A stretch of DNA of 63,572 nucleotides, filler included, from Collodictyon triciliatum (lineage: Eukaryota): assembly GCA_043381765.1 (NCBI GenBank). It is 13 parts of 13 records of this genome, joined end to end, with 100 filler letters (N's around TTAATTAATTAA, not from the genome) between each part and the next. Parts side by side here need not be neighbours in the genome. Positions count along the whole stretch, not along the records: positions 1 to 5,072 come from JBHJMP010005516.1; 12 more parts are not named here. One strand, given 5' to 3'. This document shows positions 2,039-2,402 of the stretch, piece by piece. The position numbers and the translations under genes were made by a program. A model generated the notes under the pieces. The model searched no databases, had not been told where the DNA came from, and was given only the letters and a program-made list of their open reading frames with translations. The first letter of the stretch is position 1; the number at the start of each line of letters is the position of its first letter.

Positions 2039-2151
2039 TTGGGTCTTTCCTGGCAGGCTTCACCACTACACAATCTTTGTGAAAAAAGTGGTGAGACCTT
2101 GGATACTGGCGGACCAGGTTAACCAATCGAAAGATGGTATACCCCTTCTAG
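2039..2151 (+). ncRNA. Putative Fanzor omegaRNA scaffold / element right end (copy 1)
   Basis: Non-coding, immediately after the stop. 7 substitutions plus one 3-nt indel versus copy 2 over ~114 nt. Nested stems GGTCT/AGACC, TCACCACT/AGTGGTGA, CACAA/TTGTG, CTGG/CCAG and ACCAATC-GAAA-GATGGT. Homology stops at CTAG|T. Confidence 0.7.
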
Positions 2152-2402
2152 TTAATGTAGATAAAGCCGCACAACCCTATCTGTCCAATTCAATTTTTAC
2201 TATGGGTAACTGCTTTTTCGGCCCTTGTTCGGGTTATACTCAAGTAATGCACCACACCAGAATAGCAATAATAACAAAAACAGTAATAGAAATAATAATT
2301 ATAGACCCGATGATGATAGATATGATAATAGCCTTCATAGTAAATGTATATAGACTATTGTCAAGAGAAAGAAGCATGTGCATATTAACAGACTAAGAAT
2401 TT

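Follow-up and report, generated by a model that had tools for sequence, protein, structure and literature searches.

A probable relic omegaRNA-encoding right end in two decayed copies of a Fanzor1 element of Collodictyon triciliatum

Introduction

Behind a Fanzor-like gene of the eukaryote Collodictyon triciliatum lies a short tail that recurs behind a second copy of the gene. The question raised by this locus is whether the tail encodes the scaffold of a guide RNA (omegaRNA), with the host DNA beyond the element end supplying the guide. Such a reading had been put forward in an original prediction made from the sequence alone. In living Fanzor1 elements, transcription of this segment occurs jointly with the 3' end of the nuclease gene or starts from it; the transcript folds into an omegaRNA scaffold bound by the nuclease and reads ~15-20 nt into the host flank to provide the guide, and the resulting ribonucleoprotein cuts DNA carrying a transposon-adjacent motif beside the guide match. 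Here, we analysed the locus within its window, i.e. the entire stretch of 63,572 nt, filler included, in which 13 parts of 13 records of assembly GCA_043381765.1 are joined end to end; all positions count along this stretch.

Results

The coding part of the element was assigned via its relatives. A search with a 134-aa piece of copy 2 among 1.84 billion representative proteins returned 415 matches at E ≤ 1e-3, 49 at ≤ 1e-10 and one at ≤ 1e-30. Many of the 415 are 600-700 aa long; the closest matches are fragments 137-291 aa in length, and the nearest protein of full length shares 39% identity with the query piece. The best full-length relative, an intact protein of 634 aa (P0004), aligns to both copies, switching from frame to frame (phmmer against three frames; E-values refer to a six-sequence database), its residues 4-596 corresponding to window positions 144-2000 and residues 4-591 to 38745-36911. 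When a profile of 13 relatives was compared with the PDB sequences, it matched the three solved Fanzor1 structures and nothing else: PpFz1 of Parasitella (1.1e-79), SpuFz1 of Spizellomyces (5.9e-79) and GtFz1 of Guillardia (2.7e-69). Direct comparison of the window pieces with PpFz1 and GtFz1 gave weak matches (E 0.023-0.86, PpFz1 being best at 0.023), and the Pfam families OrfB_IS605 (E 0.0046) and Cas12f1-like TNB (E 0.003) both stayed below the cut-off. The Fanzor motif D-X(125,275)-[TS][TS]-X-X-C4 zinc finger-X(5,50)-RD, given in the excerpts of Bao & Jurka 2013 (PMC3627910), is present piecewise in copy 2 as VSVDTGKF, EFRTSKMCHNC..., a second CxxC (CIIC) and TRDFNSS, spread over frames by frameshifts. 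Longer proteins matching a 128-aa RuvC-I piece were not found at E ≤ 1e-3, nor did this piece match any PDB sequence at E ≤ 10, and a 100-aa C-terminal frame returned unrelated weak PDB matches only. Based on the P0004 alignment, the profile matches to three Fanzor1 structures and the wrecked reading frames, both copies are Fanzor1 pseudogenes. The Fanzor assignment of the original prediction is thus borne out, and the copies are members of Fanzor1, the RNA-guided TnpB-like nucleases of eukaryotic mobile elements.

Both gene copies are dead. The pseudogenes span 144-2027 (+) in copy 1 and 36851-38757 (-) in copy 2, and neither contains an intact frame of ~600-700 aa: several frame switches and in-frame stops leave longest open segments of 130 aa and 134 aa, respectively. 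The RuvC-III frame of copy 1 (RDFNS...) terminates in a TAG at 2025-2027, and in copy 2 the same frame continues unbroken into and through the tail. The copy-1 counterpart of this open frame contains a TAA at 2120-2122 (+), a possible ancestral stop, at which copy 2 reads CAA; three contigs of a freshwater-metagenome run (X1) have a T at 2121. As relatives carry 29-66 residues past the RD motif, an ancestral stop at 2025 and one at 2120 are both possible. The ancestral gene may have ended at 2120-2122 and not before 2039, in which case scaffold and coding sequence would overlap, an arrangement also seen in the relatives. A profile of the C-termini of 61 relatives, compared with the frames of the tail, detected homology only up to RDFNSTNNILNKVISILQ, the RuvC-III helix. 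A candidate homology of 'EKSGETLDT' in the tail with 'EKVGQSVDFT' of the relatives consequently remained unsupported.

The left end of copy 1 lies outside the window, the view of it being blocked by a microsatellite at the edge. Within window positions 1-170, the 5' end of this copy runs into an expanded repeat of 11-12 nt (GACATAAAAAA-type, followed by three units of GAAGAAAAGACA), which seems to have grown from the gene's own lysine-rich start codons. The window as a whole is eukaryotic, AT-rich and full of microsatellites, and encodes HLH, hSac2 and zf-RVT domains. It further holds a 68-nt repeat in three copies (16122-16189, 56368-56435 and 6483-6550, at 93% and 69% identity when compared with the reference copy); since one of them adjoins an ORF with a zf-RVT domain (16175-17287, -), the repeat probably belongs to a retroelement family. 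An open frame with an acidic (GAG GAT)n run (2403-2738, -) adjoins the flank of copy 1. A search for sequencing runs that share words with the queried sequence listed five runs, all of them DNA, with shares of 0.07-0.11, and this simple repeat is probably behind some of the shared words.

The tail itself ends sharply. Its first 34 nt are present twice in the window, at 2042-2075 (+) and, with two mismatches, at 36817-36850 (-), a match obtained in 0 of 100 shuffles. The tail of copy 2 (36743-36850, -) is the equivalent of segment 2042-2152 of copy 1, and no further or solo tails were detected in the window by nhmmer with both tails as query. Together with their genes, the two copies are alignable over ~2.0 kb (85.0% identity over 1999 columns in blastn). 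Pairwise alignment of 2039-2152 yielded 104 identical bases out of 111 aligned, which reproduces exactly the seven substitutions and one 3-nt indel counted in the original prediction. Beyond 2152, identity falls to 45 of 94 aligned bases (2153-2260). The proposed break of homology directly after CTAGT is upheld at 2152|2153 in copy 1 and 36743|36742 in copy 2. The proposed boundary at ~2152 held as to its sharpness and has to be corrected by one base, as T2152 (36743 in copy 2) is still common to both copies and the flank starts at 2153.

A third insertion supports the same end. Contigs of four freshwater-metagenome runs, two of which (X2 and X3) are apparently one data set filed twice, were aligned to window positions 170-2500. 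A contig of run X1 follows the element as far as 2152 and from there runs into a loose end of 172 letters, a different and unrelated flank. The X1 contig thus breaks off at the very same base. Given the same end in three insertions with differing flanks, the boundary after CTAGT is real, and the tail is the right end of a Fanzor1 element. The bases just past CTAGT are TA, CT and GG in the three insertions. CTAGT (2148-2152, +), the last bases common to all copies, marks the element end, possibly including bases of the target site: in relatives of the element, the shared bases past the inverted repeat (TA plus A) are target-derived, and part of CTAGT may likewise come from the target, which would move the guide start a few bases to the left of 2152|2153.

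Could the shared tail stem from a segmental duplication or from chance similarity instead of being an element end? The presence of only two copies in the window would fit such an origin. The copies are inverted, however, lie ~34 kb apart in window coordinates and have unrelated flanks, a third flank exists in run X1, the body is a Fanzor1 gene and the shuffles did not reproduce the 34-nt match. We regard duplication or chance as ruled out by the unrelated flanks and the third insertion.

The freshwater runs contain many more short fragments that are 85-90% like the element, and element-related copies are 85-99% alike overall. Near-identical contigs were also found, namely 186 nt with one difference and 176 nt with two, covering the copy 1 parts 1252-1437 and 1638-1813, and 86 nt of host flank without any difference (2415-2500). 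Such 99-100% identical contigs place the source organism, or else a very close relative, in fresh water.

The folding of the tail was analysed in two parts, a 5' module of the candidate omegaRNA scaffold (2042-2098, +) and a 3' domain (2099-2152, +). In the 5' module, GGTCT/AGACC enclose TCACCACT/AGTGGTGA, which in turn enclose CACAA/TTGTG (5 bp), and the 3' domain comprises a CTGG/CCAG hairpin, a GAAA hairpin (CCAATC-GAAA-GATGG) and an alternative stem of ACTGG with CTAGT. All nested stems named in the original prediction are thus present in copy 1, and two of them contain a broken pair in copy 2, where AGTGGTGA is changed to AATGGTGA and CTGG to CTAG. Seven of the eight pairs of TCACCACT/AGTGGTGA are kept there, and the CTGG-CGGA-CCAG hairpin is broken. 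Two of the seven substitutions therefore break named pairs, the others are located in loops or linkers, and not a single pair shows a compensatory change. The G-to-A change that disrupts CTGG/CCAG would turn a G-U pair into A-U within ACTGG/CTAGT, a closing stem that occurs in the minimum free energy fold of both copies without carrying statistical weight. Fold energies are at chance level: the whole tail reached z-scores of -1.28 in copy 1 (20 of 200 shuffles as good) and +0.26 in copy 2 (117 of 200), the 57-nt 5' part -1.93 (12 of 200) and -0.43 (64 of 200), and the 3' domain -0.21 and -0.53. Rfam at gathering thresholds gave no match in the window.

The tail is kept modestly better than the gene, with 104 of 111 (93.7%) versus 1562 of 1803 (86.6%) identical bases (Fisher p = 0.029). 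This slight excess speaks for a former scaffold and would also fit one that still functions in trans, i.e. dead copies being transcribed and loaded by an intact Fanzor1 encoded elsewhere, the flanks at 2153 and 36742 then being live guides. The further copies in the freshwater runs speak for such a situation, as do the 'ghost' loci of S. punctatus, which keep inverted repeats and the omegaRNA region according to the excerpts of Saito 2023 (PMC10432273). Against it stand the stem-breaking substitutions of copy 2 and the fact that the searches turned up no intact copy, the nearest database entries being the fragments mentioned above. Taking both sides together, we consider persisting function in trans improbable.

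To which elements is this family related? A metagenome scan provided 80 loci with relatives and a scan of viral contigs 80 more, many of them from named giant-virus bins. The closest intact proteins are ~34-43% identical to the 134-aa piece of the window, with 43% as the best value among the loci returned by both scans. In 13 of 14 relative loci examined, the element is bounded by near-perfect terminal inverted repeats of 29-38 nt (CACC...GGTG) flanked by TA, and in two loci examined, a DDE_3 plus HTH transposase is located beside the nuclease, together with ribonucleotide reductase and XPG genes. The relatives are Mariner/Tc1-type Fanzor1 elements, a type described for algal giant viruses in the excerpts of Bao & Jurka 2013 (PMC3627910). 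Their conserved block spans the gene end plus ~80 nt and stops exactly at the element end, and otherwise identical relative elements differ in their flank straight after GGTGTAA. Shorter relatives of ~2.35 kb (L006, L014, L025 and others) have no DDE transposase; inside their inverted repeats, they contain a conserved lysine/glutamate-rich coding stretch ~330 nt upstream of the Fanzor start, which ends just before that start.

None of these Mariner/Tc1 traits (inverted repeats, TA pattern, transposase) was found for the element in the window, nor was its left end. A search of the 900 nt upstream of copy 2 brought up no inverted copy of the right end, the closest agreement of 10 of 14 bases being roughly at chance level, and tblastn with two DDE_3 proteins returned nothing better than E = 0.93 in the window.

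Covariation clearly supports an RNA structure at the gene end of the relatives. RNAalifold, applied to 47 distinct full regions, predicted a 7-bp stem-loop in the last codons plus a 12-bp terminal stem, with compensatory changes in 9 of 22 pairs. The outer stem of the 5' module is GTCT/AGAC, replaced by TGACC/GGTCA and GCCT/AGGC in other sub-families. Across 48 distinct 5' modules (outer stem plus 7-bp stem), 94.0% of cells pair, compared to 39.6-53.3% with slid partners, and 74 cells are changed on both sides, compared to 4-18 in the slid controls. None of 500 shuffles reached the observed percentage paired, the count of double-change cells or the covariation score. Two of the five measures were less clear, as the number of pairs with both-side change was reached by 55 of 500 shuffles and that of further pair types by 30 of 500. 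Two relatives fold at z-scores of -4.96 and -4.30, values matched by none of 200 shuffles. A covariance model (R1) built from these 5' modules was then searched against 80 giant-virus loci. At E ≤ 0.01 it yielded 74 matches of 24-81 bits, each located on the strand of the nuclease gene, a few of the contigs being also part of the training set.

In the loci of both scans (L006-L080 and L081-L160, e.g. L007:5745-5883), the covarying structure comprises ~120-155 nt and extends from ~55-90 nt inside the nuclease gene to the right inverted repeat. One and the same 5' module is combined with two different 3' ends, GCCG-hairpin...TTCAAGGGTGTAA in L048:2235-2430 and L067:5795-5990 versus TAATGGGATTTTGTCTCATT...GTCGGTGTAA in L010:2395-2535, which hints that sub-families have swapped scaffold halves or element ends as modules.

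The tail of the window shares its layout with these structures. By eye, GGTCT...AGACC surround TTCACCACT...AGTGGTGA, and the GAAAAAAGT spacer resembles the invariant GAAAAAGT of the relatives. A GTCT..AGAC outer stem, the TTCACCAC.. start of the enclosed stem and a GAAAAA(A)GT spacer are common to both, so that the outer stem and the enclosed stem of the original prediction have found their counterparts. The tail has ~19 bases more than the relatives plus an extra inner hairpin, and either the 8-bp TCACCACT/AGTGGTGA or the 5-bp CACAA/TTGTG could correspond to their covarying 7-bp stem. Statistically, the link is weak. Searched window-wide, R1 listed copy 1 (2058-2091) with 9.2 bits and E = 2.2 as the eighth of 32 matches, and copy 2 did not appear among the matches up to E = 10. 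When the search was confined to the final 200 nt of each copy, the same copy 1 site reached E = 0.0068 (9.2 bits), and 36801-36834 in copy 2 reached E = 0.037 (6.5 bits), the top match being the same sense-strand site in both copies. At the DNA level, blastn of both tails against the 80 relatives' loci gave a best E of 0.85.

Discussion

From these observations, two explanations of the element end need to be compared. The tail may have been kept only as a transposon end, i.e. as a transposase-binding terminus, 3' UTR and perhaps last codons, without ever having acted as a scaffold in this lineage. The relatives lend this idea some plausibility, as their last ~30 nt are a terminal inverted repeat in 13 of 14 loci and part of any such end would thus be under DNA-level constraint; nor does the window's tail show a significant fold, covariation or a significant window-wide R1 match. 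But the covariation in the relatives involves the coding end and sequence upstream of the inverted repeat, which points to constraint at the RNA level, the search ahead of copy 2 revealed no inverted counterpart of the right end, and all Fanzor1 proteins tested in the excerpts of two reports (PMC10432273, PMC11423790) use RNA from the right end of their element. A terminus that never acted as a scaffold appears unlikely to us.

We favour the other explanation, to which we assign a probability of about 72%: 2042-2152 and 36850-36743 (-) represent the right end, with a relic omegaRNA segment, of a non-autonomous Fanzor1 element of ~2.0 kb that survives in two decayed copies. The scaffold/guide reading of the original prediction is retained to the extent that the element is a Fanzor1, that the segment forms its right end and that relatives have a covarying RNA at the same place. 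It is weakened by the dead genes, the R1 score of E = 2.2 and the chance-level folds. We infer that the tail itself once served as scaffold, and the host flank from 2153 onward would be the guide. Candidate guide segments, provided that a read-through RNA is made, are 2153-2172 (+) in copy 1, where the drop in identity defines the flank and published Fanzor1/TnpB biology suggests the guide role, and 36723-36742 (-) in copy 2, as placed by the pairwise alignment. Both loci are now most likely relics without activity of their own.

As a more daring variant, the tail might belong to a hitherto undescribed cellular Fanzor1 lineage far-derived from giant-virus Mariner-type Fanzor1, in which the scaffold was remodelled by the ~19-nt insertion that forms the extra nested helix, and whose many dead copies may still provide a small number of intact nucleases with omegaRNAs in trans. 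If this were true, the flank of each relic would still be a live target, but we deem the scenario decidedly speculative. What the locus adds to the catalogue is a decayed Fanzor1 family of a freshwater eukaryote, an ordinary finding that will not surprise the specialist. With ~40% identity at the protein level, the family is tied to a clade of aquatic giant viruses that is large and well preserved, and the guide-RNA structure of this clade could help in designing scaffolds for its members. No usable nuclease is to be gained from the window's own copies, as these are dead.

How does the element compare to known systems? According to the excerpts of Saito 2023 (PMC10432273), the omegaRNA of SpuFz1 comprises a scaffold of 75 nt, located between stop codon and 3' inverted repeat, and a guide of 14-15 nt. 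Unlike SpuFz1, the element in the window was found without inverted repeats or a TA/CATA context, and both of its genes are dead. It resembles SpuFz1, as described there, in the order of a Fanzor1 gene followed by a conserved segment of ~80-110 nt up to the right end, in the variable flank beyond that end, which is the guide in SpuFz1, and in being multi-copy with degenerate ('ghost') loci. A segment at the gene's 3' end that runs to the element end, with variable DNA behind it, is indeed what the two copies (104/111, then 45/94) and the third flank behind 2152 display. The omegaRNAs of GtFz1 and ISDra2 TnpB overlap the 3' coding end, in GtFz1 by the last 17 codons (excerpts of Saito 2023, PMC10432273). 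A stop at TAA 2120-2122 would result in an overlap of ~26 codons in the window's element, compared to ~18-30 in the giant-virus relatives. The predicted RNA of these relatives matches the published Fanzor1 omegaRNAs, whose first stem-loop comprises 7 bp in each of the three solved RNAs (excerpt of Xu 2024, section 5, PMC11423790). Compared to the giant-virus Mariner/Tc1 elements, with their CACC...GGTG repeats of 29-38 nt, TA flanks and, in some cases, DDE_3 transposase, none of which was found in the window, the element stands apart, and their RNA model gives its tail 6.5-9.2 bits versus 24-81 bits for the relatives themselves. What connects it to them is that they provide its closest intact proteins, the same nuclease architecture and a GTCT..AGAC stem around a stem-loop at the 3' end of the gene.
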